A DNA stretch of 62,797 nucleotides, the filler included. It is 11 parts of 11 records of this genome, joined end to end, with 100 filler letters (N's around TTAATTAATTAA, not from the genome) between each part and the next. Parts side by side here need not be neighbours in the genome. Positions count along the whole stretch, not along the records: positions 1 to 10,311 come from SRR7504441_3712; 10 more parts are not named here. One strand, 5' to 3'. Below the pieces are notes generated by a model, which searched no databases, was not told where the DNA came from, and was given only the letters and a program-made list of their open reading frames with translations. Of this stretch, positions 1-58,054 are shown one piece after another. Position 1 is the first letter of the stretch, and each line of letters begins with the position of its first letter. The position numbers were made by a program, and so were the translations under genes.

Positions 1-1
1 C

Positions 2-2890
2 AGTGGCGCTGCGTACGTTCCTCTGGATCCCAGCTGGCCAATTTTCCGAACTGATCACATCCTGCAGATCACGAGCTCGACCGTAGTAACACTTCAGCGA
101 CGGTTTTATAGTCGTCTGAAGAGTGGCCTGTCTCAATGTCGTTGTACAAAAGTATTGTGCTTTGGTGACTCGAACACCTGGGGCTACACGCCCATTTCGG
201 GAAAGCAGATGCCAGAAGCTCACCGTTACCCTACAGTACTCCAACAATTGCTTGGAGAGTCGTTTTCAGTGACGGCTGACGGTGTCAATGGTCGGGCTTG
301 GTGCTCGGCATCTAATCCTGCAGCGGTTGCTCACATCTTTGCACAAGAGTTACAACACGTGATGGTTATTCAACTCGGAACGAATGATGCTGCCAAGGGA
401 CATTGTTTGCATACCATCAGCATTGCTGTTGAAGACGTCATATCAACTGCCAGAGCGTATAATCCTGGTGTCAGAATCATCCTGGTGTCTGCTCCTCCAA
501 TTCTGCCCAACTTCAAGGTGCCGGTTGAATGGAACTATCACCCAGATGCTGCAGCTTTGTCCGATAAGATTTCGGCCATGCTGAAGAGACTTGCAGCATT
601 CCATTCCTGTGATTGGCTAGACGCTGCTCCTATTGTGCACATACCTCAACCTGGCGAGAATAGTGATGGCGTGCACCTGGATGTCCGAGGTGCTCGGGAT
701 CTTGCCGGCGCGATAGCGGATTGCATCCAGGCAATAGAGGTACCGGTGGCAAACACAGAGCTGTTGCTCCTTGAAGACTGTATGAACTCTGTACCAGCTC
801 AAGTTGCAAAACACTGCAGTGATCAATGCACGGAATCACTGGCCTATGTATTATTTACTTCTGGATCAACAGGCCGCCCAAAGGGAGTCATGATAGCAAC
901 ATCTTCGCTTGTTGTATTTTTGCATGCCCACCGAACTCAACTCTTGCCAGGCTTGACGTGCATCGATCGGATCCTCTACACGTTTGCTTCCACCTTCGAC
1001 CCCTCAGTGTTTTCGGTATGGTCCACACTGATGGCTGGTGCATGCTTGATTGTTCCTCGAGCTCTGACAGACATTCATCGCACACTTGGTGAATTGGCGT
1101 GTTCCGCCGCTACCTTTATAGCAATGGCGCCTTCTGTACTGGCTGCATATTTGGCAGCTGGCCAACTATGTTCGACGGTGAAAGCAGTGCTCGTTGGCGG
1201 GGAGGCGTTTCAACCCAATTTGGCGCGCATATTACTGCAGGCAGGAGTCAGAGTGTTGAATGCGTATGGGCCGTGCGAAGCTACAGTTCAATCGCACATA
1301 TTTGAATGCAAGCGACTTGTTGCTGATGAAGCCGATGATCAAGATTGGCCGTTCAACTTTTCTAGGCGCTCAGTGCCAGTTGGCATGCCTCTAGCAAATA
1401 CGACCTGTTACATCCTTGATGTTACACAGCATCCCGTACCTCTTGAAGTTACTGGCGAGATGTACCTACATGGGCCAAAGCTGGCGAGAGGTTATTTGGG
1501 AACTCCACAGAATTACTCTGTATACATGCCCAGACTTGGTCGGCTCTATCGCACAGGCGATCTCGTAAGGTGGCAAGCCTCTGGCGCAGTCGATTTCCTT
1601 GGGCGAGTCGATCACCAGGTGAAACTGAATGGTGTGCGGATAGAGACACGAGAAATCGAGGAAGTCCTAGTTTCTGATCCCCGTGTCTCTGACGCGTTAG
1701 TGATGCGGGTCGACCAGCCTGCTTCATATCCCCATCTAGTTGGATTTGTGACAATGTCGCAAGCAACCAGACCTGTCGAGACTGCAAAAATACGAGCACA
1801 AGCTTCCAAGTGGCTACCAAGCAGTTTAGTTCCCACGGCACTGATTGCGATTGAGGATTGGCCGCTGACACGGTCAGGAAAGATAGATCGAGCTCAACTG
1901 GTCGGCATGATAGCAAGTGTAGAGAAGACAGGCAGCGAAGATGCAAGCGAAATTCAATGCATTGTGCAGCAGATTTGCGAAGAGGTAGTTGGTCATAAGA
2001 TCGGAATCCAAGAAGATTTAATGCAGGCTGGGCTCACATCTCTCAGGGCTGTGGTATTGTTGGCGAAGTTGTCAGCTCAAGGCCTCGCGGTACCTTCGAT
2101 CTCTGCAATTTTAGCTCAACCGACAGTCAGAGAGCTTGCAAATAGCTGCATGGGGCTAGACTCTCCTTTGCCCCCCTGTATTGCACCAACTGACATAGTT
2201 GTGCTGAATGTGCCAAAGAACGTGGTCGGTGATGAAGCAAAATTACCTCCGCTATTTCTTGCAGCACCACTATTAGGATATTCAGCTTGCTACGGTAAAC
2301 TTGCCGGAATGTTTTTTCAAAGGACTGTCTTTGGCTGGGACCATCGAAATGAGGCTGGAATACTTGCTCTTGCGAAGTCATTTGCTGCGAGAATTGAAGC
2401 CACTGCACCTCAGGGGATGATCCATCTGGGCGGATGGTCTCTTGGTGGTCCGATATGTTACTTTGCAGCTTCAATATTACTTGCTGCTGGTCGTGACGTG
2501 CGAGCGATTCTCCTCCTAGATGCTCCCGACCCAGCAATTCTGGACTCTGCAGAACTGCCTCCCGAGCCAGATTTGCATTGCCGTACAACACGATGTCTAT
2601 CTATTAGAGCAACATTAGATGACGATGGCGAACCCCGGTCTGAGTGCACTCATTGGCAACTCGAGGGCGCGCAAATAAGTGTCCATACGCGTCATGACGA
2701 TCTTCTATCTCCTGAGCACCTTCCCGAGATTGCAAAAGCCATGATCAATCACATGGATTCACTTGAAGAACAGACCTTCTCAGAACCCTTGATGCCATTG
2801 AAACTGGAGCCCGAACCATTGATCCTGCCTCTGCTTCCTGCGCATTTATCTGAAGAGCTTGCTCCAGATGGGTTGCTCGATCACCTGTGA
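2..2890 (+). CDS. NRPS-like terminal module: adenylation domain interrupted by an SGNH/GDSL hydrolase, then PCP (T) and thioesterase; 5'-truncated at the window start
   Basis: The frame is open from nt 2. Motifs in order: SGAAYVPLDP (A2, 2-31), LCFGDSNTWG...GTND...DGVH (SGNH, ~150-730), LAYVLFTSGSTGRPKG (A3, ~839-886), FDPS (A4), NAYGPCE (A5), GEMYLHGPKLARGYL (A6), YRTGDL (A7), GRVDHQVKLNGVRIE (A8), SGKIDR (A10), GLTSL (PCP Ser ~2039) and GWSLGG (TE, ~2432). No introns are needed. Confidence 0.93.
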   Translation, partial: SGAAYVPLDPSWPIFRTDHILQITSSTVVTLQRRFYSRLKSGLSQCRCTKVLCFGDSNTWGYTPISGKQMPEAHRYPTVLQQLLGESFSVTADGVNGRAWCSASNPAAVAHIFAQELQHVMVIQLGTNDAAKGHCLHTISIAVEDVISTARAYNPGVRIILVSAPPILPNFKVPVEWNYHPDAAALSDKISAMLKRLAAFHSCDWLDAAPIVHIPQPGENSDGVHLDVRGARDLAGAIADCIQAIEVPVANTELLLLEDCMNSVPAQVAKHCSDQCTESLAYVLFTSGSTGRPKGVMIATSSLVVFLHAHRTQLLPGLTCIDRILYTFASTFDPSVFSVWSTLMAGACLIVPRALTDIHRTLGELACSAATFIAMAPSVLAAYLAAGQLCSTVKAVLVGGEAFQPNLARILLQAGVRVLNAYGPCEATVQSHIFECKRLVADEADDQDWPFNFSRRSVPVGMPLANTTCYILDVTQHPVPLEVTGEMYLHGPKLARGYLGTPQNYSVYMPRLGRLYRTGDLVRWQASGAVDFLGRVDHQVKLNGVRIETREIEEVLVSDPRVSDALVMRVDQPASYPHLVGFVTMSQATRPVETAKIRAQASKWLPSSLVPTALIAIEDWPLTRSGKIDRAQLVGMIASVEKTGSEDASEIQCIVQQICEEVVGHKIGIQEDLMQAGLTSLRAVVLLAKLSAQGLAVPSISAILAQPTVRELANSCMGLDSPLPPCIAPTDIVVLNVPKNVVGDEAKLPPLFLAAPLLGYSACYGKLAGMFFQRTVFGWDHRNEAGILALAKSFAARIEATAPQGMIHLGGWSLGGPICYFAASILLAAGRDVRAILLLDAPDPAILDSAELPPEPDLHCRTTRCLSIRATLDDDGEPRSECTHWQLEGAQISVHTRHDDLLSPEHLPEIAKAMINHMDSLEEQTFSEPLMPLKLEPEPLILPLLPAHLSEELAPDGLLDHL

Positions 2891-3249
2891 CATCTTGAGG
2901 CTAGTTGTATCTTTCAAGAGAATAGACCACTGGGACTACACTGAAACAATTCTGTAATGATTTAGTACTCTACAATTATTCGATGGTGAATGGGTCAGCC
3001 CCACCACGCACCATGTATTGACCAAAATTTAGCACTCTACCGCACTTCTAAAAGCATTGTTTTATTTGCTCAATATAGGGGTTAGGGTCCCTACACAGAT
3101 TACACACAGATTGTCGCTCGAGTTTGAATTAAATAAATGTTATGCACTTAATCAGTTATATGATAGGTAACTGGTTATGTGGTTTTCCGGACTTTCTTAT
3201 TAAAACGATGCTGTCAATTAACGTTGAACGACAATCAAGTGCGACTCGA

Positions 3250-5723
3250 TCACTTCATGACGCCAATATCGGGGAAGTATTTGTTTGTGTGCACCCGGTC
3301 CTTTGTGTTTTGGGCAGCTGTTCTTCCAACGATCGCTCGTTTATGGTCATCTAGGTCGCGTTGTAACACGGACCGGTATCCAACTGGAGGCATCCAGCCG
3401 GACAGCAGAGACAACTTGCGCCAATCGGAGTGCGAGTCAGCATTCCACATGTTTTTGTCCTTCCAAGCTGCCCTTGCCCGCTGCTGTGCCTCCAAGTCAT
3501 CCAGATCATAACGACCTACGAACTCATTCGCCATTCCAACCTGCACCTCCACAGCTGCGGTCCGAGGATGGTGTACATTAACAGGGAACGTCGGTGATGT
3601 TATGGGAGGCACCACGTTTGGTGAGCGCGATGGTGATGACGGCAGTCCGGCACGGGATGACGACGTTGGGGTTTCTACTGTCAAAGGTGCAGCCTTAGGG
3701 GCAGGGGTGTACGCTGTGCTTGCTTGGTAATGTGGACCTTGTACTGTGCTCGCAGGGTCTGCATCGCTAAAGTTCCAATCGAGAGTACCATGATTTGGTC
3801 GCTGCTCCGAGTTACGACGGTGAGCAGGGACCCGTGGCTGGACAGGTGGAAGTTGTACCGGGGGTTGAAATGGTACGCCATTGAGCAAACAGCCTTCTAA
3901 GATCTCAACGTCACCAAATTCACTTCCAGTGATGGTGCTGCTCAGTGACGTAAAAGCTGCTCCTCGCCACCCAAACACACCATGCCCCCCACACTGAGAG
4001 ATGCTGCTTTCCAGCAACACACCAGTGGAACCTTCGCCATTGACGCGAAATCCGTCTGCCCTGGCATTCTCGATGATACAACCTCTGACAGTTACAGATG
4101 CCGCATTATCGACGACAATTCCATTGTCGCCTGATGCCCGAATCATGCACCATTGTAAGGAAATCCGGCTACTAAGGCCCATAGCCTTTACTGAGCTTCG
4201 ACTGGTACGCTCAAACTCACACCCCATAGCAAGCACAGACCCCCCTGAGCGGCAGAGAACAGCATGTGACCCAGAAGCGGCAACCTCACAGTCTTTCAGA
4301 ACTGCACTCGCGCCAGGCCCAACTGAAACGACCCCTGAAGCCGCAGGAGCGACAATGCGGCAGCTCTGCAGCTTTACTGAGGCCCCGTCAGTGACTGTCA
4401 CAGCAGAGCCAGGACAATTACTGAACTGGATATCAGTCAATTCAAAGCCTTGTGCTCCCTGCCGCCTCAAAAATAAATGGCTGGGGGCAAAGCTAGGCAG
4501 GCGCACTCACCACTCCGGTGATCACGAGTTCGGACTTGTTAATCTGCACCACAGCACCATTGGCAGCAGCCAGCTCCACAGGCCTGCGAAGCACTAGTCG
4601 ACGCCCAATTGCTGTGTACATTCCAGTTGCCAGCACAACTCTACAGTGCTCTGGTGCGCCATGACACGCGTCCTCGAGGGTGTTAAAGTCCCCAGGCACG
4701 TGCACCTCCTTCTTGGCAGTACTGTCTATAAGCTCAACAGAGCTATCCAGCTGCAAGCGGCGACCGCTGTCACACTCAATGTCCTCTATGTGGACCTTGG
4801 TCTGAGACCAGGCCCAGAGTCCCCGATAGTTACCTTCACACTTGCACCTCTCTACATCGACTGACGCAGACTTGCAGCCAGAGAAAGCAGCACTGCCAAA
4901 CCTGCCAAGCCGCCATGAAGAGCACAATCAGGCGGATACAACACCTATACACAGTGCAGCCAACCGCGTGAAGCGACGCCTCCTTGGCTGCTGCCATTGC
5001 CACAGCAGAGGACCACTGCCCGAACCCAGTGCCATCTCGAGCCTCGATCAGACTCTCAAAGACGCAATCGTTCACCTTGGCACACGTGCCAGGATCTTCA
5101 GCGTCCAGAGCTCGATCAAAGGTGCCAGCCACTGAACACTGGTCTAGCTCTGCTTTGGCCCCGTTCCTCACGTATACGGCACAACTAGTGGCGCCAGTAC
5201 AGTGGATCTCGCTACGGGACAGCAGCAGCGCAGTGCTCGAGTCGTCGATCCGGGGCGCACAATTGGAGGCCGTGTTGTCCCGCTGCCCTCTGAACGCGGC
5301 CCCTACCACCAGGGGCACGCTGAGCTGGCAGTCGGTCACGCTCAGCCTGGCCCCATGGTACAGCCAGACTCCACCGCCCTGGAGCCTAACTGCCTCCAGC
5401 TCGATGCTCACACCAGCCCCGCGGATGAGCAGCCCAGGCACTGTGAGCATGCTCTCGAGGTGGTTGCCTTGGATCAGCACTCCCGCCCCTCGGATGAAGA
5501 TCGACTTCTCCATCTTGATCCGCCCGGCCTGGTGCTCGCCCGCCCCCAGCACTATCCGGTCCCCGGGCCTGGCCGCCTCATACGCGGCCTCGAGGCTGGC
5601 ATAATCCTCCGGCACGCGCAGCTCAGCGGCTGTCTCATCGGCAGGACCAGGCTCGGCCGCCGGACACCACTCTGGGTCGCTCTCCGAGCCGCTCTCAGGC
5701 TGCTCGTCTGCGACCTCTCCCAT
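3250..5723 (-). CDS. Right-handed beta-helix (pectin lyase-like / NosD-type repeat) protein, multi-exon
   Basis: ORFs 4836-5891, 4493-4927 and 3250-4506 can be joined by short introns. Two 'VPEDY/F.sLe.A...A' caps each precede PbH1-like repeats (e.g. GIVVDNAASVTVRGCIIEN). Likely ATG at 5723. Confidence 0.7.
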
Positions 5724-5817
5724 GCTATTCCCGCCACTCCAAGTCAACGGAAGAAGAGCAGCGTCTGACTGGTGGGAGGAGACCCTCAGGGCAGCCGGGC
5801 CGGCCGGGTGAGGTGGG

Positions 5818-8800
5818 ATGGAGGCGGCTGCGCCAGCGGAGGGCGAGCTGGACGAGAGCCCTCCCGAGTGTCGAATCTGTCGCTGCGGCACCGAGAACGG
5901 CCCACTGCGTCGGCCGTGCCTATGCTCGGGCAGTGTGCGGTGGGTTCACCAGGAGTGCCTCGAAAAGTGGCTCGAGACGAGTGGCAAGACCAAGTGCGAG
6001 CTGTGCGGCTACCCGTTCAGCTGGACCCAGCTCTACAGGCCGGGCACCCCGGACCGGCTCCCGACCCGCGAGGTGCTGCGCGAGCTCGGGATCATCGTCC
6101 TAGAGGCGTTGGACCTGGCCCTCCGAGCGGTGCTCTCCATCCTGAGTTACGCGGTGCGCGCCCACTCGCGGGTGGCCGGTCCAGCCGGGGCGCAGGTGCT
6201 CACCCCCATCGCGACCATGTGGGTCTGGCGGCTGTTCCTCGCTCAGTCTCTCGACGTCAGCTCCCAGTGGCAGCAAATCTCGGTCGGCTCGCTGGTCGCC
6301 GACGCGCTGTGCGGATCTCTCGTCTCGGTGTCGTTGGCGATGGCGCTTCACGTTCTGGGCGTGGTAGAGGCGGAGGGCGAGGCCCCGGAGGGAGGTGATT
6401 GGGCCTGTCGCAACAAAGCTGACCGTGCTCGGCAGCGTTGGTGCTGGCTCCAGGACTCGGCTCTGAGCCATCGATGGAAGAAGGAGCTGGGACGCCGGCG
6501 GAAGAGGTCGACGAGGAGGGGCCGCAGTCGGGGTTCCAGCGAGTAAACGTGGCAGTAGAGCTCGCAACAGATGGTCTCGAAGACAACCCAGTGATTGCCT
6601 AGTGATATAACGTCTCACTGCCTGTGTCGCAGAGCACAATCAGACTCGAATTCCACCACGGCTACGCCTGGATCTGGCGCAATGCGCTGCTGGTCCTCGT
6701 GTCCAACAGCTGCCTTGTTGGGCTGTTCCTTGCACCACCAATAATTGCAGCCCGGCTGGTGGCTTTGACACTGCAAAACGCCGGAGATCAGGCCCGACTG
6801 GTTGCAGCTGTTGTCACTGGATACACGATAGTGCTCTCGGGTTCTGTGGCGTGGTTCGTAGCGGTGTCCTTGGAAGAGGAGCCCTCAGCACCACCAGCAG
6901 AGCCTGTCGGGGTGCAGGCCATGCCAGCCTGTAGAGCTGAGAGTGAGCCAGGCCGAGCTAGCATTGGATGATGCGGATCCAGCGCCACCCGAGAACGCCG
7001 CAGTGCAGGATAATGCGGAGCCTGAGCCCGGCTACAGTGTAGGGACTCTGACTGCTGTGCTGGCGAAGGTGTGCTCTAGATTCTGCCCAGAGCTCAGTTG
7101 GTCGGTCATCAGGTTGTGTTCATGCTGGGGTGCGAGACGTTAATCTTTCCTTTGGGCTGTGGACTGCTGATAGATCTCTGCGCGCTCTCTGCGGTGGCAT
7201 GCCCTGCTCGCCTTGGCGCCACCCCTGAATTGGATTGTTTTCAGCTGAGCTCGGGAGGATTAGTGGAGCGCAAAGCATTCCTGGCACGATCTCCGTTCCT
7301 GTTTATTTTCGCACACTGGCTTGTCGGCTTTGTATTCATGCTCCTGATGGCATTTGTGCACACGTTTGTCGCATTTGCAAGCTCTTAAATTGAGTGCTGT
7401 TTTGGATGCAGCTTCCTGATGACCACCTTTAGCCATGATATGGTCCCGATGGCCCGCCAACTTAACGCCCAGCAAGAAACTGCGATGGAAGGTGAGTGCC
7501 CCAGGCTGAGTCGTTCTGACGTTTTCGCCTGCAGGCGACTTCTGGGGTGCTCTGATGGCTGCTCGAGTGAGTGATCTGGCTCTCAGCTCGCTATTGTACG
7601 TTCCATTGATCCTTTGTCTGGTGAATTCGAGCCTGCTCTCTCGACCATGAGCTTGTTCACAGGTATGGGTCCCTATTCAGATCAACATGGTGCTCTGCCC
7701 ATGGATCTTCCCAATCAGCATCTCAGCAGCTGGCTCTTCTACATTTGGTCGGCTTGTCTGTGTGAGCTATATTGATGTCACTGGTTTTATGCAGGGTTCC
7801 CGGCAGAGCTGATCGCATTCCACATAGTCATGCCATTTCTTCTGGAGTACCGCGATATGCAGTCACAGCTGTCAGACTCCTTCACGTTCTTATTGCACAA
7901 ACTTGCTGAGACGCTTGGTGTATCCCCATATTTATTTGATCACGATGCAGACCTTCGAAATGCTCAGGAGAGCAGAACTTGTATCCGCACCTGGCTGTGC
8001 CTGGGATGCTTCTTTTTAGGTATGCCTGAATGCTTTCTGTAACAGCTAGTTGTTTACTCTGCTGATCCTTCAGGGACACTCGCACTGGTGATGGTGCTGA
8101 TAGCATACACCATGTCTGTTTCAATCATACTGGGAAGGTTAGAGCTCCAGATAATGCAGCTTGGCAAATCAAATGACTTACTGGCCTTCGCTTTTGGCTT
8201 GTGCTCTGTATGGATTTTGCTACGGTTGCTGGCCCAAGCTAGTTGTGCCTCATTCGAAAGCATATCCAATGCAGCAGTTGCAGCCTTTACCACACTAGCA
8301 AGGGTAAGAACTCCCACAGCCAACTCCCTTCTGAGATGGTTGGCACTTAGGGTGCGGCATTCCTATGCATTTTGGTGTTGTGGGGCTGCGTGATTCCGAT
8401 GCTTGTCGGCATACTGGTTGAGCTCTGCATCGGAGTGCACATCAGGCTGGGGCTCAGTCATCGCACCCCGTGCTTTGCTCTTCATCAGGTCAGTCACCAT
8501 CAACTTCAGCCAGAGTAAAACTGCTTGCAGGACTGGGTGCTCGGACTCTTTGTACTCAAGTGGTGGGTAAGGAGTGTCACTCTGATAGAGAATCGTGAAG
8601 GCGAAAGCGACCATAGCTGGCGGAATAAATTTAATCAGGTGAACTGTGAGCCAAATTAATGATGCTGACATGAGCCTGTAGGTCTACGACCAGGATGGTG
8701 CTGTCAGGACGGGCTTTGTGCTATGCGAGATCATTGCCCCTGTTGGTCTTGCACTTTTGGTAGCCTTGTCGGTTCCTTATACTGCAACTACTGTTTTATG

Positions 8801-9188
8801 TGCGTTGTGTGGCGGTGACTGGCACTATACGGCCGGGACTGACTTGGAAGCCTGTTTGGCAGTGGATGCTGGTAGCACTGCCATAGCAATAAGGCTCTCC
8901 TACTTGGGGTGCTGTGCGACTGCTACTCTGTACTGGTAAGCATTTGATTGTGTCCTGAAGCATAGGAAATGTGTAGCCGGCTTATTCTATGTCTACTTGA
9001 ATGCTATACTGCAAGGTGCGAGAATGACTCTGAATGACGACAGGTTGACTATGAAAGGCTACCAGCTCTTGAGATACATTCACAACAAGATTCGTGATAA
9101 AAAGTATTCTATAGGTTCAGTGCTCCATGATCGGGATCCGGAGGAGAGGGAGGCATCCGAACAATTACTTATTGATTCGGTTCATTGA
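5818..9188 (+). CDS. MARCHF6: MARCH6/DOA10/SUD1-type RING-CH membrane E3 ubiquitin ligase, many short introns
   Basis: N-terminal RINGv CRIC...PCLCSGSVRWVHQECLEKWL...CELC, many hydrophobic TM exons, and a C-terminal IHNKIRDKKYSIGSVLHD matching the conserved DOA10/MARCH6 C-terminal element. Confidence 0.85.
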
Positions 9189-9410
9189 AAAATAAGGCTA
9201 ATGCTCTTTAAAATCCATGCCAGGTTTTAAATCGCGACACGACGGAACGTACCCGTATATAATAAATAATGTAATGAGCTCGAGAAGCATTTAATGAATA
9301 ATGATCAACTTAAAATCAATGATGTTCAAATTTCTACAGCTGTACGGTCGCATGGGATTGTCTTGGCGATTTCATGAAATGTCAACTCATCTGAATCTGC
9401 TAAATATTAG

Positions 9411-10311
9411 CTAAATATCGTTATCAATCATCATCTCTTGCAGTTCCTCTGGCGTCAAGCTCAAAATCATGTTGTACGGGTTTGGTCTGTGCTGCCCCAA
9501 AGCTGGTATCTGCATCTGTGAGGGAGCTGGGATCTGCGGGACAGCTGGGATCTGCATCGGCAAGGGAGCCGGGATCTGCGGGACAGCTGGTATCTGCATC
9601 TGCGAGGGAGCCGGGATCTGCGGGACAGCTGGGATCTGTGAGACAGCCGGGACCAGCAGGGTAGGCGGCTGATGCCTAACAGGTTGCGGCATTTGCGCGA
9701 CAGGCTGGGGCTGTGCGGCAAATGGGGACTGCCAGCCAGTAGCATTAACATGAGTGCTTCCCCTTCCTGAAGCCACCGACACAACTGAGCCAGCAGGATA
9801 GGCCTGCTGTTCGACCATCACTGGTTTGACCAGATTGGGATGCAGCATCGAACCTGGCTGCATGCTGGCTGGGAAGGTCGGGACCACATCGCTGAAACTA
9901 GGCTGTACGGCCTGGACGGGCTGTGTGAGTTGCGCTGAGGGTTGTGGTACTGAGGGGGCTTGAAGGGATTGGACATGGCCAGTCGCTAGTGGTAATAAAG
10001 CTGGCTGTGGCGCGACTGCTGTGCTGTTGCTGTTCTCCCCCGCTATCTCGACTCGACCCTCCTCCTTGGGCTTCTTGCCTCCTCTCGCTATCTCGAGCTC
10101 GGTGCGCAGTGCCACAATCTCTTTGGTTTGGTTCAGGACGACAACCTTGAGCTGCTCACACTCCAGCTGCAGATTATTGATCGCCATCCGCTTGTTCGAC
10201 GAGGCATTCGCGGCCTCCCTGCGCTTCCTGGGCCGGCAGCTATCGCACGTGGCTCGGCCTGACACCGGCCCAGTTAGCACGGCAGCTCGGGAGGGGGGGG
10301 GGGGGGGGGGC
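9411..10311 (-). CDS. Hypothetical protein with a basic region, a coiled coil (bZIP-like) and a Pro/Gln-rich repeat tail; 5'-truncated by gap
   Basis: ORF 9411-10280: CDSCRPRKRR followed by heptad LQLECEQLKVVVLNQTKEIVALRTELE, then PQIPA repeats. Confidence 0.55.
9501..9653. repeat. Coding 42-bp tandem repeat, 3 full copies plus a partial (encodes ~VPQIPAPSQMQIPA)
   Basis: Units start at 9501, 9543 and 9585 (agctgg.atctgcatc...gggatctgcgggac), with a partial at 9627. Confidence 0.9.
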
Positions 10312-10411
10312 NNNNNNNNNNNNNNNNNNNNNNNNNNNNNNNNNNNNNNNNNNNNTTAATTAATTAANNNNNNNNNNNNNNNNNNNNNNNNNNNNNNNNN
10401 NNNNNNNNNNN
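10312..10411. other. Artificial contig spacer (N-TTAATTAATTAA-N, 100 bp)
   Basis: Six-frame stop linker between N runs. The same spacer occurs at 16174-16273, 23539-23638, 26870-26969, 30927-31026, 34281-34380, 38942-39041, 42564-42663, 51829-51928 and 57955-58054. Confidence 0.98.
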
Positions 10412-16173: not shown

Positions 16174-16273
16174 NNNNNNNNNNNNNNNNNNNNNNNNNNN
16201 NNNNNNNNNNNNNNNNNTTAATTAATTAANNNNNNNNNNNNNNNNNNNNNNNNNNNNNNNNNNNNNNNNNNNN

Positions 16274-23378: not shown

Positions 23379-23669
23379 TTCAACGGATTGGCAGGCAACG
23401 AATACGGTATTGAGTAGGCAACCAGTCAGCTGCCAGTCCAGATCTAAAGACCTGTTACATACATGTAGATCTATATTCTATGACGGCAAAATCGCCTTCC
23501 TGATATATGTAACTACAAACGATCTAGACTTGCAACGCNNNNNNNNNNNNNNNNNNNNNNNNNNNNNNNNNNNNNNNNNNNNTTAATTAATTAANNNNNN
23601 NNNNNNNNNNNNNNNNNNNNNNNNNNNNNNNNNNNNNNTGAAATTGAAGTATTTGCGTCGAAATCTTAA

Positions 23670-26777: not shown

Positions 26778-26969
26778 CGGACCGTCCGCGTGGCGTCGGG
26801 CCGGTAGTCCGTTGCCGTTGGCTGTGTAGGCAAAACACAAACGCAAAAGCCAGTTTTCGCGGTGAGCTGNNNNNNNNNNNNNNNNNNNNNNNNNNNNNNN
26901 NNNNNNNNNNNNNTTAATTAATTAANNNNNNNNNNNNNNNNNNNNNNNNNNNNNNNNNNNNNNNNNNNN

Positions 26970-30926: not shown

Positions 30927-31026
30927 NNNNNNNNNNNNNNNNNNNNNNNNNNNNNNNNNNNNNNNNNNNNTTAATTAATTAANNNNNNNNNNNNNNNNNN
31001 NNNNNNNNNNNNNNNNNNNNNNNNNN

Positions 31027-34280: not shown

Positions 34281-34494
34281 NNNNNNNNNNNNNNNNNNNN
34301 NNNNNNNNNNNNNNNNNNNNNNNNTTAATTAATTAANNNNNNNNNNNNNNNNNNNNNNNNNNNNNNNNNNNNNNNNNNNNTCGGAGCACCGTCTGTGTCG
34401 GAGCACCGTCGGGCACGCCGCGGAGAAAATAAAAATAAAATAAATCACGAGACTTCATTGACTTGCCTCGCTCGGGCATCTTCAACCTAGAGAC

Positions 34495-35640: not shown

Positions 35641-38600
35641 TTAGGCTGAAGCGTACCAGAGGTTAGATATCTCCTTCTGCTCAGTGATCTTGTCTGCTTT
35701 CAGGTTTTTGCGCCAGTTGTTGAGCATATTTAATGTGAGCATTTGTTGCCACTTCACAAACGTTCTACTGAGCATGCTCAGGCCACTGTCCATATTTGAT
35801 TGCGATTTGGCCTTGGAGCAAACATTCATCCTCCACGTGCTGAGTAGATTACTGACTGACCTCTGCTGCCAGTTGTTCATGGTCCGACTTATCATGCTCA
35901 GTCCATTCTTCATTGGAAGCGGAGAGCCGGGACCATGACTAGCCATTAAGCGACCTCTCCACTGATCTACCTCTAGATTCAATTGCCACCTGGTGATGGC
36001 CTGACGATAGCCATGCTGCCACATGCTGTGCAGTAAACGGCGGACAGCATGCATCCCGTCCTCGATGCTCTCCAATTTGGCTACTGTGCTACTGTTGACA
36101 ACCATCTGGGAGATGGCTCCCTGTATGCTTGCACTGCGGAGCCAATTGCTTACCGCTCGTAGGCATCGGCTCCATGAATTCCACTGCACTGCCAGGCCCA
36201 TCCAGCGGGTTGCGAGCGAGAGCGTCAACAGCTTTAGCTTGTATAGCTGGAGCTGTTTGAAGATGTCATAGTCTTTATTGATCTGCCAGTTCATCACTGC
36301 ATGGCTCATACCTTGCTGCCAGAAAGTGCGCAGTAACGAGCTACGAGCGAATGAGCTCACAGCACTTGCCAACCGCCACTGCCAGACCAACCGCATAGTA
36401 CGTATCTGATCGTCACTGAGAGTCGTCCCTCTCAGCAGAGCAGACACGAAAGATTTCATAATGGCAGGGCCTCGTTGGGCCGGCTGTGCAACCTGCTGTT
36501 TCTTCAAGGCAGCCTGCTCTACCCGTAAAGACCAGCTGTTCCATGCTGCCGACAGAGCGCGATGCATCATGTGAGCCAAGGCAGCCACTAGCTGCTGCTT
36601 CTGCTCAATAATTTGCGCTGAATGGTCATGTAGCACGACCCAAGCTTCCTTGAGTCGTCTACTTTTGAATAGAGCCTGCAGTAAGATCCTAGTCCCAAGC
36701 ATGACCGGAGCTGTCTCCTGAGCTTCGTAGCAAACCTCTCGCCATTTGTTCCACGATCGCAGTACTTGTGTATTCGCCGCTATCCTCATTTGCAAAGCGG
36801 CATGTCCTGCATCGGCCGCTGCATCTCTCCAGGTTTGCAGACTCCTAGCCTGCCATAAGTTCATCATCCTCAGCAAACCCTTCCGAGCTGTATCCTCTTG
36901 TGCAGTGGCCTCCATGGCGTCTGTGCGCCAAGTGTTCCATGCCGCTTGCAATGCCCTTGTGCACAACATTTGCACAGCACGAGCTAGCCCTGTGCTCCCA
37001 TCCCTAAGCTGCGTTACAAGAAGTCTCCACTGAGTGAAGCTTCCAGCAAGTCTAGTTTGTGCAGAATTGATCCACAAGTTGAGCCAGCCATTCAAGCCTT
37101 TTTGCATGACCTCTTTCCTTGCATTCTTGTCCAACAGAACTTCATACCACGAATCCCAAGCAGCTGCAATGGCCCGTAACCTCATACGTTTCAATGCACG
37201 CGCATGTCTCTGCATCCTTTCGTTCAGCTCCTCCACGCATTCACTCCAGGTGGAAAAAGCTGCTGCTAGCTTTGACTTCATCATCCTCATCAGCATTTTT
37301 CTCAGGAAATTCTCTGCCTCGCTGGCCTCTAGGAAAACACTATGCCATTTATCAAATGCGGCTGACAATGCCCGATTCTTCATCCGTATCAGGATACGCT
37401 GAAGCCTCTGCTCAGCACCCTTACGCTCCGACACGATTTCCTGCCAAGTCTCAAATACAGCTGACAGAGCCCGGTGCATCATGCGCTTCATCGCTCCCAA
37501 CATCCGTCGCTTCTGTTCCACAAGCTCCTCGGCCCAGTCCCGCCAGCTATTCCATGCTGCTGACAGAGCCCGATGCATCATGCGCCTCAAGGCAGATGCT
37601 AACCTCTGCTTTTGCACTTTTGCCTCAGCAGCCTGACCGCGCCAAAGATCAAAGCAAGCTGTAAGCTTCCACTTTGCACTGCGGAGCAGAAGCATGTTGA
37701 CCCGACGCATCACAGCAACGTTTGTTACCAGGTCCAGCTGCCTCTGTTCCTTATAAAGTTTTCTCCAGGCTTCCCAAGTGGCAGAGAAATTGTGAGCAAA
37801 CATGTGGGCAAGCATGTGGACTACTTTCCTCCTTCTTTCTATAACTGCAACATCCCCAGACTCCAGGGCCAGTGAGAATGCCTCCCTCGCCTCTTGCAGC
37901 ATTTCTGTGGTGCGCGGATCCTGGAAAGAGGTCCAGCATATTGCAGCAGGGTTCTTCTTGCTAGCTTTGGCATGTTCGCGCCACCTGGAGACCAAGAACA
38001 GCAATTCAAAGAATCGACCTCGATTACAGTCGTGTAAAGCAGCCAACCATAGTCTCGCGTAGTGATGCATTGTATCTGAAACACCCACAGTGTAATGCGC
38101 ATAGCGGAGCTCCAGGTGGCAGTTGAGCTTCCATTGGTGCAGGTACTGACTAATACCGGCCCAGTAATTCATTTTCCATTGCATTGTTGCTGTCAGCAGC
38201 ACCTGGTGGTAGCGCACATCTGCTGCAAGCCGTATAAAATTCACATACATCTTGCGCAGCCGGGAGCAGAGCAGAGAAGCCTGCATATCTCGAACCGCCC
38301 TTTGTATCTCCAGAACTTGTCCATGCCGCATCATGTTCACTAGCATAGTTACCACAGCCCGATGCGACATGCGTGTGAAGCGCCTCCCTGAGCGCTTCAA
38401 TTGAGTTCCTAGCTTAGATCTCTGAAAGTTCTGGATCATGCATTGCATTGCCGAGAGCTGCGTATGCTGCTGCACTTGAGCCAACATCTGGGTGGCTGCA
38501 CTGTGCCTCAAGTCTCGTATGTTAGTGCTGAGCTTCATGTCTTTTGCAAAAGCTTGCAAGCTCCTCACCGCTCGCTGCAATGTTGAAGTCTGCGCTCTCA

Positions 38601-38941
38601 GTAGCATCCGCATCAGCATCTTGCCCACAGCCTTATCCCTCAAGTCCCGCATGCCGGAATTCAATGCTGCGTGTTGCAGCCTTCTCACTACGCGCTGTAC
38701 TAGACTCGTCCGAGCTTGTTTCAGTATACGCATTAGCATCTTGCCCACAGCCTTGTCCCTCAAGTCTCGGTGCCCGTCACTACGCATGCCCTCTTGCAGG
38801 CTCCTCACTGCTTGCTGCAACGCAGATGTCTCCGCCTGATGCAGCACTCGCGACAGCATCTTGCCCACTGCTGTGCCTTTCAGGCCTTGCAGCTTGGCAA
38901 CTTTTGCACCTTCCTGCAGCCTCCTCACCACACGCTGCACC
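35641..38941 (-). CDS. Sfi1-like Trp-repeat helical protein, intronless, 5'-truncated
   Basis: 1099-aa ORF with recurring RMMHRALSAAWNSW / AAFDKW / AAFSTW motifs at ~33-aa spacing. N-terminal 40-aa repeats (agcatcttgcccac at 120-bp spacing). Confidence 0.6.
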
Positions 38942-39041
38942 NNNNNNNNNNNNNNNNNNNNNNNNNNNNNNNNNNNNNNNNNNNNTTAATTAATTAANNN
39001 NNNNNNNNNNNNNNNNNNNNNNNNNNNNNNNNNNNNNNNNN

Positions 39042-42000
39042 CGCATCCGAGCCTTTTCATCTTGCTCGTTCCACTGGAGATCAGTAGGCCGTGCCTTACT
39101 TTCAGGCTTGGCCTTGGACGGCAGCTTGATCTCCCCACTGAGCAACATCTCTGCCCTCTTCTCCATGGCATCTAGGCTCGGCCTTCGTTTCCTCTCAGAG
39201 GGCGACAGGCTGGTCGAGCCCCTCGTATAAGTATCTGCACGCACAACAGCATCAGTAAGAGCCCATCTGTGCATTCTAACACGGCCTACCTGTACGTCGC
39301 GCTATTCCTCCCGCTGCCTTCGAGTCGCCAGCACTCAACTTCTTCTGATCCGCGACCAACTGCCTGGCTTCTTGAATCCCTCGCAGCGTGTCCGCCTCAT
39401 CCTGCGACAGCACGCCGTCGCTATTCACATCGAAGGTCTCGAAGTCTTTTGCTGTGCCGCCAGACGCAATGAAAGCGTCACGACCCATTCCAACAGCCGG
39501 GCCGTCGCGCGAGCGGCCCGACAGGCTAGTGACCTGCAACCCGGAGGTGGTAGTGGCCCGAGCCTGCGCTCTCTTCCTCCGCTCTTCTGCCACACTGTTT
39601 TGAGTCGCTTCTGCAGCGAGCTTCCTATCAGCTTCAGCAGGCCTATTGCCCAAGCTCGCTCTGCGCTTCTGCGTTGCGGCTTTCCTCTCTTCTGCAGCCT
39701 TAGCCCATTCATGCGCCTTCTTCATCTCCTCCGAAGCCCGTGCTTGCGCCTCCGATTTTCTCTTCTCAGCTGCTTCCTTCGCCCTCTCCATCGCCTTGAC
39801 GTTGTCCTCTACCTTCCTCTGTGCTGCCACTGCATCAGCGCGCTTCTCGGCTACGCTCGGCTCGGCCTTGTTCTCAGCAGCCTGCCTGGCTTCAGAGATT
39901 GCCCTCCGTTTTGGTGAGACCCCGAGCCCTTCGATCCCAAGCCTTGACCGGCGTTTCTCCTCCTCGACCTGCATCACCACGGTTCTCTTGTGAACCGTAT
40001 CCATCTGCTTTCCAGCTTCGGCCATGGTATCCTCCAAATGCTTTCTATCAGCAGCGGCTGCCACTGCTGCAGCTTGAATTTCCTCCAGCAGAGTGTCACT
40101 GCCTGATTCTACTTTTTGTGCAAGAGCAGCTTCAGCTTCTTCCATGGCCATTCTCTCAAGCTTCAGCTGCTCATACTGCGCACGCTGTTGCTCGTATTGC
40201 GCACGTTGCCCTTCAAGTTTCTCTTCTTCAACGCGATTTTCAGCAGCCAACTGCTCGGCGGCGGCGCGCTTCTGCTCTTCCACTCTCTTTTTTACGAGGG
40301 CTTGATGCACATGAGCCTCGCGCTCGCCATGCTCCAGCCTGTCTTTTGCGCTTACCTTGTCATCAGCAGCATACTTGCGTTCAAGTACTTGAGCTTTGAG
40401 AGAAGCTCGATACTCAGCTGCTCTCTTCTGCTGCTCGAGGGCAGCAGCCTTGATTGCTGCTGCTTCTTCAGCTGCCCGCTTGCGATCCTCCTCCCACTTG
40501 GCCTCAGCTGCTGCCCATCGTGCCTCATCTGCCCTTTGGCGTGCGGCCCCCTGCTTTGCCAGCCTCTCTTTCCTCTCTGCAGACCTTTGGTCGGAAATGG
40601 AATACTGTTGTGTGTGTCTCTCACGTGCGGCTTCGGACTTGGCTACCTCTGCCTTCGATCTCACACTCTGTAGCGCGTCGAAGCGTGCGGCAGACCTCTT
40701 CTTTCTGGCATCTTCCTGCTGCAGTAGGGACTCCAGTCTCGACGCCTGGCGCATTGCCTTCTGTGAAGCAGTCATCCACTCGTCAGCTTCCTCGTCGTCC
40801 ACTATACCGGCTTTGGCCTTGAGAATTGCTTCGCCATGAAGCATCATTGCCTCCTCTTCTTTGGCAAGCATGGCATCCGCATTCCGGCGCTTTCTCTCTT
40901 GAGCTTCAGCTGTTATGACCAACGATGCCTTCCGTTTCTCTTCCTCAAATCGGGCCACTGCTGCTATCTCTCTATCCTGAGCGGATAGTTTTGACATTAC
41001 CTTATCCTCTGACTCGGCTTGCAGCCTCTGCTGCTCCGCCAATGTATCCGTTGCGGTGGGTGACTGCCTAAGAGTCAATTCTTTGACAATCATATCCTTT
41101 TCCATGAACTTTTTGGCTTCTTGCAGGATTGAGGCCTCATCTGCGACCATCGAATGTTGCATTTCCTTCCTCCTGTCACGCGCCTTTGATATTTCTTCTT
41201 CCATTGACAGCTTGGCAGCCTCAGCCAGCTTCTCTTCCTCCTCCATCAGCCTTTGCGCCTCCTCCGCCAGCCTTTCGGATTCAGCCTCCCGTGCTTCTTG
41301 CTCCAGACGTTTGTCCTCCATCAGCTTCTTCCTAGCTTGCTCCATCTCCTCTGCGGACATGCCGAGCCTTGGAGAGTTCTCTGGAGTGCCCGCTCTCGAT
41401 CCGCGCCGCGAGTGTGACCGGCTCCGTCTGCCTTCCTCCTCTTTGACCAAGGCATCCCAAGCAGTCGCGTGCCGAGCAGCCCTCTCTGTGGCATCCCGCC
41501 AATCGTCATTTGTATGAATCTTCTCTTCTAGATCACCAATTCTGCGATCGTGAGACAGATCTGCCTCGATCTTGTCATCCATGCGTGTTTTGACGACAGC
41601 TCGTGCGTAATCTGTTGATGAATTTGTATCAGCATGAATCTGATCCTCAAAACTGGCCCACGAATCCATGTCTGTTTTGAATGACGCAACCTCTGCATTG
41701 ACAGCAGCATGGGCATTTTCACGAGCAGAAAGCCTTGGCGAAGACCGCCGTTCAATCTCTCTCTCCAGCTCATCGGCCTTTGCCTTTAAGGCCTTCCTTT
41801 GGCTCCTGGGCGACGAAATCATCTCTTCTTGAACTTGGCAAAGCTCAGAGTTCAGATTCTTGAGTTTACTCACATCAAGAGGAGGAACAGGACTCCTGCT
41901 GCGCTTCACAACTATGACCTTAGTTCCGAACACAGGCATTGTTGCTTCTTTGTCCTCAGGACTAAGATCCTGGCAAACCGGATCAGCATGCAGCGTATTC

Positions 42001-42563
42001 AGGCAGTAGACCTCCTCAGCGGAGTAGCTGCCACCCAGGCTTGTGATCTCTGCTGTAAGCTGCACCGTGGGCAAGTCAGAAGGTTGTTCGCAAGTGGCCA
42101 CGCACCGTCGTAATCCGCTCATTGATCTTCTTCAAGCGCTCTTCTGCTCCCTCATCAGCTCCACCTTGCCCCATTTGACTGGTGAGGATTGCTCGCTCGC
42201 GTTTCAGTCCATTTGCAAGATCAACAAGAGTCTCACACCGAGTTGTATTGATAGCTTCCTGCACAGAATACAAAGTGTGAGAGTGCACAGGGGGCTGGCT
42301 AACCTCCTCTGGCGAAAGAGGCACGTCTTCAGTCATAGAAGCATCCTCCGCTTGTGGTGATTGAGCTTCGTCTGCAACAGCAGGCTCTGCCTTCTGCTGC
42401 TCAACTGGCTTTGGCATAGGTGGAGGCCGACTCTTAGCAGCAGAGCGAGATCTTGGAGGAGCGCCACCTTGAGACCTTGGTTCAGTTGAAGCCAGATCGT
42501 AGGATGCCGCCTTGGGCTCCTGCGGATGCTGTACATTTTCGAGTCCAGCCTTGATCTCAGTCA
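39042..42563 (-). CDS. Large coiled-coil protein with one EF-hand, partial, few introns
   Basis: 948-aa E/A/K/R-rich ORF with FDVNSDGVLSQDE. Adjacent ORFs join through GT-AG introns near 42060-42105 and 42260-42304. Confidence 0.65.
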
Positions 42564-42663
42564 NNNNNNNNNNNNNNNNNNNNNNNNNNNNNNNNNNNNN
42601 NNNNNNNTTAATTAATTAANNNNNNNNNNNNNNNNNNNNNNNNNNNNNNNNNNNNNNNNNNNN

Positions 42664-51828: not shown

Positions 51829-52107
51829 NNNNNNNNNNNNNNNNNNNNNNNNNNNNNNNNNNNNNNNNNNNNTTAATTAATTAANNNNNNNNNNNNNNNN
51901 NNNNNNNNNNNNNNNNNNNNNNNNNNNNAGTAAATGAAACTCACGATTAGAAAACAACTGTGATAAAACTCAGGTCATGAACGATCGGCATCATTCGTGT
52001 AAAACACATCCAATGGCCCGAACGGCTAAATAAATTTATTTTTATTCATCTAAAGTGGATGGCGCCCCATGTAGGGGCGCCGTCATGTAGGGGTGTCTAG
52101 TTGTGGT

Positions 52108-57920: not shown

Positions 57921-58054
57921 AACTCAACAATTTCATTCCACTCGGGATCAACGCNNNNNNNNNNNNNNNNNNNNNNNNNNNNNNNNNNNNNNNNNNNNTT
58001 AATTAATTAANNNNNNNNNNNNNNNNNNNNNNNNNNNNNNNNNNNNNNNNNNNN

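Follow-up and report, generated by a model that had tools for sequence, protein, structure and literature searches.

The locus at the start of this stretch of DNA raises the question of whether an adenylation (A) domain of an NRPS (non-ribosomal peptide synthetase) can house a complete SGNH/GDSL hydrolase between its core motifs A2 and A3, and, if so, what that hydrolase does there. The window (the whole stretch of DNA that was analyzed, 62,797 nucleotides) is made of 11 contigs with spacers between them, so physical linkage to the NRPS gene is confined to positions 1–10311. Positions beyond 10311 are other contigs of a bin. The open reading frame (ORF) occupies 2–2890 on the plus strand, encodes 962 aa, is open at its 5′ end, and closes with a stop codon at 2888–2890. 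It begins at the contig start; the A1 region and everything upstream fall outside the stretch. Along the ORF come A2, ca. 36 aa of A domain, the SGNH domain (aa 47–246), a linker of ca. 33 aa, A3 through A10, a carrier domain, a thioesterase (TE), and the stop codon. The features are as follows:

2..31, plus strand: A-domain core motif A2 (SGAAYVPLDP); NRPS rows fully occupy its columns in alignment A4
32..139, plus strand: A-domain segment after A2 (aa 11–46), modeled as helix-strand-helix; precedes the insertion
140..739, plus strand: inserted SGNH/GDSL hydrolase domain (aa 47–246); Pfam PF13472, PDB profiles, AF2, Foldseek
170..172, plus strand: SGNH block I (GDSN), Ser57
281..283, plus strand: SGNH block II, Gly94
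383..385, plus strand: SGNH block III (GTND), Asn128
665..667 and 674..676, plus strand: SGNH block V (DGVH), Asp222 and His225
740..838, plus strand: return linker leading back to the A domain (aa 247–279), with strand ELLLLED (aa 252–258) and a low-confidence loop
839..1921, plus strand: A domain from A3 (LAYVLFTSGSTGRPKG, 839–886) to A10 (SGKIDR, aa 625–630); Pfam, TIGR01733, AF2
1964..2143, plus strand: carrier (T/PCP) domain, phosphopantetheine Ser680 at nt 2039–2041; Pfam PP-binding
2249..2890, plus strand: thioesterase, C-terminal tail, and stop codon, with GWSLGG Ser813 at nt 2438–2440; Pfam Thioesterase
2891..3000, plus strand: 3′ untranslated region; RNA contig from a polyA library (run X9 record 8: 2788–3000 and beyond)

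The initial annotation had proposed a frame open from nt 2, and the frame was indeed continuous, with neither a stop nor a frameshift over 2.9 kb. The motifs it had named were located at nt 2–31 (SGAAYVPLDP), 155–184 (LCFGDSNTWG, with Ser57 at 170–172), 281–292 (GVNG), from 374 (LGTND), from 665 (DGVH), and at 839–886 (the A3 motif). It had also held that the A domain resumes at A3 and runs through A10, the carrier, and the TE; Pfam matches to AMP-binding, AMP-binding_C, PP-binding, and Thioesterase agreed with this layout. A split AMP-binding match around a GDSL match had been expected: Lipase_GDSL_2 was found at aa 53–232, and the AMP-binding match downstream of it (aa 274–499, E = 6.4e-42) started at position 158 of the 384-position profile. 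AMP-binding_C was matched at aa 551–627, and TIGR01733 at aa 268–567. In one reading frame, then, A2 (aa 1–10) and A3–A10 (aa 280–630) flank the GDSL_2 match, which is the arrangement of an interrupted A domain.

The inserted domain matched Pfam Lipase_GDSL_2 (PF13472) over profile positions 1–177 of 178 (E = 2.3e-18), scoring 67.7 bits where the cutoff is 32.9. It contained each of blocks I, II, III, and V, as had been claimed, and the catalytic columns were kept in 65–70 rows of a 70-row alignment (Ser57 in 69, Gly94 in 65, Asn128 in 70, Asp222 in 69, and His225 in 70). The domain was confidently modeled by AF2 (pLDDT 89–98) with the α/β/α fold of SGNH enzymes. Profile searches of the PDB returned 8zbc, 4tx1, 2q0q, 7bxb, 5hoe, and 3dci (E = 1e-15 to 7e-20). 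The best Foldseek matches to the model were 8zbc, 7bxb, 5hoe, and 2q0q, and the top ten all belonged to the MsAcT/Est24-like group; E-values for members of that group (8zbc, Est24 5hoe, MsAcT 2q0q, 3dci) were 1e-13 to 1e-15, with TM scores of 0.73–0.80 and identities of 22–26%. Structures of E. coli TesA/thioesterase I were matched by Foldseek at E ca. 1e-9, at ranks 12 and below, and were not listed by sequence. Profile matches and fold thus both bore out the proposed placement in the arylesterase/MsAcT-like SGNH subgroup. Enzymes of the MsAcT type (2q0q, 8zbc, 5hoe/4tx1 Est24, 3dci, 7bxb) have in common with the insert the blocks GDS(N/L)TWG, GxNGR, GTND, and DGxH and a length of ca. 200 aa; they are, however, free-standing proteins of ca. 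210–230 aa, to which the embedded model is 22–26% identical. The insert is not a member of the type II (editing) thioesterases, as it has the SGNH fold rather than PF00975 and is placed in cis, a statement that concerns membership and not editing capacity.

The spacing between A2 and A3 was 281 aa in this ORF and 291 aa in its homolog P0271, against a median of 74 (368 A2–A3 pairs in 236 NRPS hits). The sole other outlier, P0029 (spacing of 405), was discarded as a regex artifact. The insertion is clean: ca. 200 aa were added, and the remaining a2–a3 spacer of ca. 70–80 aa is roughly of the usual length. NRPS occupancy in alignment A4 was 0.97–1.00 across aa 1–40. In the AF2 model, the segment before the insertion comprised helices at aa 14–24 and 37–45 and a strand at aa 28–32; the return linker contained a strand at aa 252–258, and pLDDT was below 50 for aa 258–276. 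The A3–A10 part was modeled with pLDDT of 80–95, and its VIA Z-scores were 30–33 against NRPS A-domain structures. Residues 1–715 of the A-domain model were aligned by VIA with EntF (528–1041) at Z = 33, with ca. 200 residues in surplus. The insert therefore occupies a recognized site (a2–a3) in an intact A fold, with the flanking helix and strands modeled. When the exact insertion residue was sought by pairwise alignment with low gap-extension penalties, the boundaries scattered and none was fixed. Alignment A4 sets ca. 25 NRPS linker residues inside SGNH columns, and this misplacement probably lowered the SGNH confidence in a 720-aa model. The specificity residues, which we take to be D-P-F-S-L-G-A-V-Q-K (positions mapped from motif offsets), resemble no standard code known to us; they consequently give no indication of a hydroxyl on the loaded residue.

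The remainder of the ORF has the composition of a termination module, with a carrier bearing Ser680 and a thioesterase bearing a Ser813/Asp840/His898 triad. PP-binding was matched at aa 655–714, and G677 and S680 were nearly invariant in the 45 rows of alignment A4. The Pfam thioesterase match spanned aa 750–851, and S813, D840, and H898 were invariant in the ORF, P0271, and P0277. As for an upstream Condensation domain, the ORF here starts at A2, and the homolog P0271 carries one at 143–591.

A search for the same architecture, which had been suggested as a check, recovered the fusion in P0122/P0271 and, on its 3′ side, in P0277. P0122 (310 aa) consists of A2 followed by SGNH; P0271 (1726 aa, on a 13.7-kb contig from another metagenome) belongs to the 90% cluster of P0122. 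The layout of P0271 is (A10)-T-C-A(SGNH)-T-TE with A1 present, and over 881 aa it matches the window ORF at 42% identity, collinear through the insertion. P0277 (802 aa, 39% identity to the window ORF) opens within SGNH block V, which immediately precedes A3, and continues as A3–A10-T-TE. Identity to P0271 was 39% in the aa 11–46 segment, 36% in SGNH, 57% in A3–A10 (51% to P0277), 35% in T, and 36% in TE; the return linker was 18–21% identical to those of P0271 and P0277. In a quick tree, the SGNH domains of the window, P0122, and P0121 formed one clade (SH-aLRT 99) against 67 free-standing relatives, which are apparently bacterial; the embedded domains made up a long-branched clade of their own among free-standing esterases. 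When 1.84 billion representatives were scanned exhaustively, two close representative clusters only came up, and the family comprises three or four sequences, in which both the pocket and the catalytic residues are conserved. Judged from these sequence comparisons, the A(SGNH)-T-TE architecture is real; it arose once and is retained by at least two further, divergent genes.

Against this stands the explanation that there is no such fusion protein, and that the frame reflects a chimeric assembly, a nested intronic gene, or a segment that was left unspliced. Cover of nt 1–3000 was examined in four runs (X1, X2, X3, X9). One DNA contig, from run X1, spans 673–922 and with it the junction from SGNH to A3, and RNA contigs cover 1170–1469 (X3) as well as 2502–2728 and 2788–3000 and beyond (X9, a polyA library). 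Neither contigs nor reads covered 31–672 or 1470–2501; these gaps carry no evidential weight. A contig of run X2 has only nt 1–30 in common with the ORF and beyond them leads into another A domain, which places the end of the gene's contig at a repeat also present in that A domain. The artifactual explanation draws on that coincidence, on the absence of independent cover for nt 31–672, and on the GC3 of the NRPS gene (0.44, against 0.72–0.83 in genes farther along the first piece). It is nevertheless very improbable, for the same in-frame fusion occurs on other contigs in P0122/P0271 and (3′ side only) P0277 at 36–57% identity per domain, the frame runs for 2.9 kb undisturbed, the SGNH-to-A3 junction is bridged, and GC3 is unbroken across both junctions (SGNH part 0.465, A part 0.449, with no compositional break). 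The initial annotation had called for reads and transcripts spanning both junctions: the X1 contig supplies this for SGNH to A3, but the A2-to-SGNH junction (nt ~100–170) had no independent cover in the four runs. Because nt 31–672 lack such cover, that junction rests on one assembly together with the homologs P0122/P0271.

The recognized interruption sites are a2–a3, a6–a7, and a8–a9. In two accounts (PMC8341866, PMC11355689), side-chain methyltransferases are inserted at a2–a3 in TioN (thiocoraline) and MarQ (maremycin), as the initial annotation had it for this site. Excerpted sources list methyltransferase, KR, and Ox/MOx domains as known A-domain interruptions, the KR cases having later been judged not to be true ones. 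So far as those excerpts describe TioN and MarQ, the present ORF is like them in placing a tailoring domain between a2 and a3 of one polypeptide with A fold on both sides, and tailoring would be expected, as there, on the carrier-bound residue following adenylation. It is unlike them in that its insert has an SGNH serine hydrolase/acyltransferase fold, whereas theirs is a SAM-dependent Rossmann methyltransferase, and in that its host is a predicted C-A-T-TE termination module on a eukaryotic contig rather than a bacterial protein. P0064, an A domain interrupted by an M domain, was rejected as an a2–a3 comparator; it is interrupted at a8–a9. Free-standing SGNH/GDSL proteins occur in bacterial NRPS/PKS clusters: a neighbor of PipG, PppH (pseudovibriamide), and ORF H of the speirobactin cluster. 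These too, in the excerpted sources, are tied to peptide assembly, but they are separate and act in trans, whereas the domain here is fused inside the A domain.

No instance of an A(SGNH) architecture was found in the literature or in several sequence collections (supplementary tables could hold one); within that scope, the statement that none has been described holds, and the known inserts are methyltransferase, KR, and Ox domains. A homolog search with aa 1–300 gave PF13472 in 0 of the 120 matches listed, the search having been swamped by A2/A3 motif words. A 'longer' profile search gave five matches, none with an AMP-binding domain. Among 30 loci from a metagenome scan (25–35% identity), none had an A domain within the flanks, and a prokaryote genome scan with two peptide patterns only gave 27 NRPS loci (26–36% identity), none with an SGNH relative within the flanks. 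The ESM Atlas clusters nearest to the whole ORF were bacterial A-T-TE proteins, with no GDSL family among those listed. In two dinoflagellate papers that name GDSL or SGNH, the mentions concerned sxtL only.

With regard to function, the reading to which we assign a probability of ca. 0.55 is built on the analogy with TioN and MarQ: positions 2–2890 would be the 3′ portion of a nuclear gene for an NRPS and encode a termination module A(SGNH)-T-TE, whose SGNH domain would (de)acylate the carrier-bound residue in cis. A complete MsAcT/Est24-like short-acyl esterase/acyltransferase domain would sit in the A2–A3 surface loop. The A domain would first charge the carrier downstream of it with the amino acid, as in TioN and MarQ; the phosphopantetheine arm would then bring the residue, bound as a thioester, to the SGNH active site, formed by Ser57/Asp222/His225 and an oxyanion hole of Gly94/Asn128. 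There a short acyl group, probably acetyl, would be added to or removed from a side-chain hydroxyl or amine, and the TE domain would then free the product. The embedded domain probably brings a novel type of chemistry to the assembly line. In MsAcT, acyl transfer is tied to the oligomer with its hydrophobic channel, and the embedded domain may not form such an oligomer. SGNH enzymes include thioesterases (TesA); in chemical terms, hydrolysis of the thioester would be just as possible, a point against tailoring.

That last chemistry underlies the proposal of built-in proofreading, in which the SGNH domain would be a cis editing hydrolase that clears a mis-activated aminoacyl-adenylate or a mis-loaded aminoacyl- or acyl-S-carrier, performing inside the activating domain a task like that of type II thioesterases. 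The catalytic apparatus is intact, the domain lies inside the A domain and adjoins the carrier, the fold includes true thioesterases (the TesA matches at E ca. 1e-9), and, since the module already possesses a TE for release, a second hydrolase would have to serve some other purpose. The proposal is nonetheless unlikely: the closest relatives are of the acetylesterase/acyltransferase type (E = 1e-15 to 1e-20), TesA being matched at ca. 1e-9 by fold; the a2–a3 insertions known from the excerpted sources are side-chain tailoring domains; and the known editing in NRPSs is done by free-standing TEII enzymes of the α/β-hydrolase type. The CP1 editing domains of class I aminoacyl-tRNA synthetases are likewise hydrolytic inserts in the body of an amino-acid-adenylating enzyme; their folds and carrier chemistry are unrelated to those here, and the likeness is an analogy only.

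Similarly doubtful is action elsewhere than on the tethered monomer, whether de-esterification of an O-acyl amino acid ahead of adenylation or a part in passing the completed peptide to an alcohol, by transfer with ester formation or by release. Among the relatives, 2q0q, 5hoe, and 8zbc (whose title calls it an acyltransferase) use free short-chain esters and can acylate alcohols, and in both the window and P0271 the SGNH domain is in the last module; yet for release there is a canonical TE whose Ser/Asp/His triad is conserved, and retention of the fusion inside the A domain in three lineages argues for coupling to the carrier cycle. Inserted M domains, as described in PMC8341866 and PMC11355689, refuse free substrate. 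The same accounts record that A domains interrupted at a2–a3 were first proposed to be inactive, which, with the rarity of the family in the 1.84-billion scan, would fit a catalytically silent structural relic or an inactive A domain. Such an outcome is quite improbable, as the SGNH catalytic residues and the A3–A10, T, and TE motifs are all kept at 36–57% identity, the SGNH domain has diverged no more quickly than T or TE, and contigs from RNA libraries match the gene.

A serine hydrolase/acyltransferase fold at a2–a3 would widen assembly-line chemistry, perhaps to O- or N-(de)acylation of a tethered residue, or even to editing; the a2–a3 site would tolerate a fold unrelated to Rossmann methyltransferases; and NRPS engineers would have a new natural template. 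Were the editing reading true, this would be the first proofreading domain within an NRPS adenylation domain, in parallel to the editing inserts of aminoacyl-tRNA synthetases. The gene is one of an uncultured marine eukaryote, expressed insofar as RNA-library contigs match it; the non-ribosomal peptides of such organisms are, to our knowledge, largely unknown.

Assignment of the NRPS gene to a marine eukaryote rests on the multi-exon RING-variant gene that shares the first piece (1–10311) with it and on the polyA RNA contigs. The initial annotation had spoken of a protist NRPS; its eukaryotic origin stood on these two grounds only, and the rest of the stretch gives no linkage. Scans of IMG/VR found no relatives of the NRPS ORF or of an XRN ORF elsewhere in the window. 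The Atlas neighbors of that XRN ORF were mostly Nucleocytoviricota clusters. An origin in a giant virus was set aside because the XRN ORF belongs to another of the pieces between spacers and the other ORFs of the bin are cellular, with partial domains (intron-split).

The reading frame was open without a break from nt 2 and, on translation, gave 962 residues, with the stop codon at 2888-2890. The initial annotation had placed an SGNH/GDSL domain with all of its catalytic blocks intact between core motifs A2 and A3 of an NRPS adenylation (A) domain in this frame; motif searches located every named element where it had been reported:

nt 2-31, + strand, A2 motif SGAAYVPLDP
nt 155-184, + strand, LCFGDSNTWG (serine codon 170-172)
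nt 281-292, + strand, GVNG
from nt 374, + strand, LGTND
from nt 665, + strand, DGVH
nt 839-886, + strand, A3 motif LAYVLFTSGSTGRPKG

Pfam profiles matched the translated protein in the following order:

aa 53-232, Lipase_GDSL_2 (nearly full profile; E 2.3e-18; 67.7 bits against a cutoff of 32.9)
aa 274-499, AMP-binding
aa 551-627, AMP-binding_C
aa 655-714, PP-binding
aa 750-851, Thioesterase

An intact domain of serine hydrolase fold, its catalytic residues conserved, thus sits within the A domain at a2-a3, and the host of the insert is a termination module with its own A, carrier (T) and thioesterase (TE) motifs intact. The Pfam domains and conserved motifs also agree with the proposal that the A domain resumes at A3 and is followed, through A10, by T and TE. 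Because A3-A10, carrier Ser680 and thioesterase Ser813/Asp840/His898 were all conserved, the module looks functional at the level of sequence. An AMP-binding match split around the GDSL domain had been anticipated; it was obtained in the metagenomic homologue P0271, and in the window the match lay only after the GDSL domain, beginning at profile position 158 of 384. The NCBIfam amino-acid adenylation model matched two stretches, the better of which (aa 268-567) corresponded to profile positions 110-409.

The A2 tyrosine and TSGSTG of A3 were 281 residues apart, compared to a median of 74 for 368 A2-A3 pairs from 236 NRPS hits. Without the SGNH domain (ca. 200 residues), about 80 would remain, a normal spacer, and the insertion is therefore clean. 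The only other spacing outlier, in the NRPS hit P0029, was a pattern-matching artefact.

Residues 1-720 were modelled using family and NRPS rows (mean pLDDT 76.5). Before the insert, the model had two helices, at 14-24 and 37-45, with a strand (28-32) between them; after it, a strand at 252-258 led through a disordered loop to the A3 strand (280-286). pLDDT was 80-95 over the rest of the A domain. Using VIA-align, model residues 1-715 were superposed on EntF 528-1041 (Z 33.2, 472 aligned), 1-549 on FscH (Z 33.3) and 1-578 on PheA 112-459, so both flanks are predicted to form one A fold with about 200 surplus residues. Pocket residues, whose positions were mapped by offsets from the core motifs, were D-P-F-S-L-G-A-V-Q-K in the window, D-P-F-S-L-G-A-I-Q-K in P0271 and D-P-F-T-L-G-A-I-Q-K in a further homologue, P0277. 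We know of no recognised standard code that this resembles; the Asp and Lys would argue for an alpha-amino acid, which we take as no more than a lead.

A profile built from the three embedded SGNH domains was used to search the structure database, and matched 8zbc, 4tx1, 2q0q (the Mycobacterium smegmatis aryl esterase MsAcT), 7bxb, 5hoe and 3dci (E 1e-15 to 7e-20). An AlphaFold model of aa 1-300 (70-row alignment) had a pLDDT of 89-98 over aa 48-246. The same proteins occupied the top Foldseek ranks for the SGNH model (E 1e-13 to 1e-15; target-normalised TM 0.73-0.80), with E. coli thioesterase I/TesA lower (ca. 1e-9). Sequence and fold thus both back the arylesterase/MsAcT-like assignment made initially. 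The title of 8zbc describes an acyltransferase with selective perhydrolytic activity, and that of 5hoe a carbohydrate acetylesterase. All five catalytic-column residues were present in the window domain (Ser57, conserved in 69 of 70 rows; Gly94, 65; Asn128, 70; Asp222, 69; His225, 70).

The window SGNH part was scored against 1.84 billion representative proteins, yielding 1990 matches with an E-value of 0.001 or better; 238 of these reached 1e-10, and a single one reached 1e-30. The best, P0121 (a fragment of 170 aa; 43% identity, E 7.5e-31), and the second, P0122 (310 aa; 36%, 3.8e-29), stood apart from the remainder, the next match being at only 5e-22. Most of the 150 matches listed were ca. 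200-230 aa long; the three listed matches of more than 1000 aa were multi-SGNH, carbohydrate-esterase-like proteins and not NRPSs. In P0122, an A2 motif and further A-domain sequence at the start lead directly into the SGNH domain. P0271, a fellow member of its 90% cluster (1726 aa, 13.7-kb contig), has the Pfam order A-domain end, PP-binding, Condensation, AMP-binding split around Lipase_GDSL_2, PP-binding, Thioesterase; it was 42% identical to the window ORF over 881 residues and collinear across both junctions. The P0271 ORF opens in a module that precedes this one, within its A10 region (residues 1-115), and the synthetases of this family therefore have at least two modules, with A(SGNH) last. 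In a separate search with the A-T-TE part (2218 matches at E <= 1e-30), the best match was P0277 (802 aa, 3-kb contig, 39% identity by BLASTP), which opens inside SGNH block V (DGIH) and continues with the last SGNH helix, a longer linker and A3-A10-T-TE. Among the best 120 matches listed, the others had no GDSL annotation and were all bacterial-type NRPSs (29-37% identity).

The fusion is therefore present in at least three divergent, independently assembled genes: elsewhere, as the initial annotation had proposed to look for, in P0122/P0271 and, for its 3' side, in P0277. Between the window ORF and P0271, the identities were 36% (SGNH), 57% (A), 35% (T) and 36% (TE); the insert thus shows a degree of conservation similar to that of the module's other accessory domains. 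When 70 SGNH sequences were placed in a quick maximum-likelihood tree, those of the window, P0122 and P0121 (a fragment without known flanks) formed one group versus 67 free-standing sequences (SH-aLRT 99). The named members among the free-standing clusters were "SGNH/GDSL hydrolase" and "lysophospholipase L1-like esterase" proteins from cyanobacteria or metagenomes. Judged from these comparisons, the A(SGNH) arrangement is conserved and of single origin. GC3 ran across both junctions without a break (0.50, 0.465, 0.449).

Contig cover of nt 1-3000 was compared in four public runs. A DNA contig of run X1 spans 673-922, i.e. His225, the linker and through A3, with three differing letters; RNA contigs covered 1170-1469 (X3) and 2502-2728 and 2788-3000+ (X9, polyA-selected). 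The SGNH-to-A3 junction was thus bridged, and the A2-to-SGNH side had no covering contig in the four runs (nt 31-672). A 729-nt metagenome contig of X2 was identical to nt 1-30 (the A2 motif) only; beyond nt 30 it encodes a different, ordinary, uninterrupted-looking A domain (...DPKLPSDRLRF) and is probably a paralogous module. This limited identity suggests that the window's first contig ended at a repeat common to modules that broke the assembly, as is probably the case. An assembly or splicing artefact is unlikely, and we put the probability that the A(SGNH) fusion is real at about 0.9.

In a 2024 A-domain review, inserted methyltransferases are described as refusing free substrate and acting on the carrier-bound residue after adenylation and loading (PMC11355689); the a2-a3 examples given, TioN and MarQ, modify side chains (PMC11355689; Lundy et al., PMC8341866). 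Such action on a carrier-bound residue, taken with nearest enzymes that handle short acyl esters, points to short-acyl tailoring in cis. The residue would be adenylated and loaded onto Ser680; the SGNH insert, as a cis-acting acetyl-/short-acyl-transferase or esterase, would then act on the side chain of that loaded residue, at a hydroxyl or amine, before TE release. We give this specific reading, acyl transfer or hydrolysis on the carrier-bound residue, roughly even odds. The data also allow cis proofreading of the thioester, as thioesterases exist among SGNH enzymes, and a role in substrate preparation or ester-forming release. They allow a silent relic as well; the inserted domain is probably catalytically active.

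Interrupted A domains are already a known kind, and what appears to be new is SGNH as a class of insert. In the bacterial interrupted-A-domain review, the inserts named for sites a2-a3, a6-a7 and a8-a9 are of the M, KR and Ox/MOx types, with GDSL, SGNH, hydrolase, esterase and lipase all absent (PMC8341866); the 2024 review has M, Ox and KR (PMC11355689). The main-text passages surveyed of the literature on SGNH/GDSL with adenylation domains or NRPSs yielded no A(SGNH), the SGNH proteins there being free-standing cluster genes or sxtL. Database searches returned no further instance; several were word- or pattern-limited, so this absence is weak evidence. To that extent, the initial annotation's remark that it knew of no described A(SGNH) architecture stands, and the initial interpretation overall is supported, with caveats on host and function.

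Ten identical spacers (44 N, TTAATTAATTAA, 44 N) were found in the window:

10312-10411, 16174-16273, 23539-23638, 26870-26969, 30927-31026, spacers
34281-34380, 38942-39041, 42564-42663, 51829-51928, 57955-58054, spacers

The window is therefore 11 concatenated contigs and seems to represent a binned genome; neighbouring genes can be interpreted as such only inside a single piece, and the NRPS is physically linked only to 1-10311. This first piece also contains two convergent beta-helix ORFs and the following:

5818-6546, + strand, RING-variant ORF (PF12906, Pfam)

A series of hydrophobic ORF pieces follows on the same strand to ca. 9188, and 5812-9188 (+) looks like a multi-exon gene for a membrane RING-CH E3 ligase. 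The RING-variant gene is the main evidence, the NRPS itself apart, that the first contig is eukaryotic. The NRPS gene was matched in polyA-selected marine metatranscriptomes, with its 3' UTR covered. For the "protist NRPS" of the initial annotation, a eukaryotic host is accordingly supported but not proven. GC3 rose steeply along the piece over 2-6546 (NRPS, 0.44; beta-helix ORFs, 0.50 and 0.72; RING-variant gene, 0.83), which makes the composition of the NRPS and its neighbour atypical. Their low GC3 is compatible with acquisition from elsewhere, and together the NRPS and the convergent beta-helix ORF next to it may form a foreign island; less probably, the gradient stems from a mis-join beyond nt 3000.

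Other pieces carry genes of a cellular eukaryote, several as partial domains, as exons would give; among these genes are GIDA (profile positions 38-226), an aconitase C-terminus, Mo25 (134-188), ferritin, sulfatase, tRNase Z, Kelch, XRN and Mpv17/PMP22 with EF-hands. Two long ORFs on adjacent pieces, 35641-38940 (-; 1099 aa) and 39276-42122 (-; 948 aa), had no Pfam match and a GC3 of 0.56-0.59, below most of the bin. The XRN-type 5'-3' exonuclease (53632-55452, +) is a short single ORF of 606 aa from ATG; an IMG/VR pattern scan returned no relative of it, and its nearest ESM Atlas clusters were mostly Nucleocytoviricota (score 0.96).
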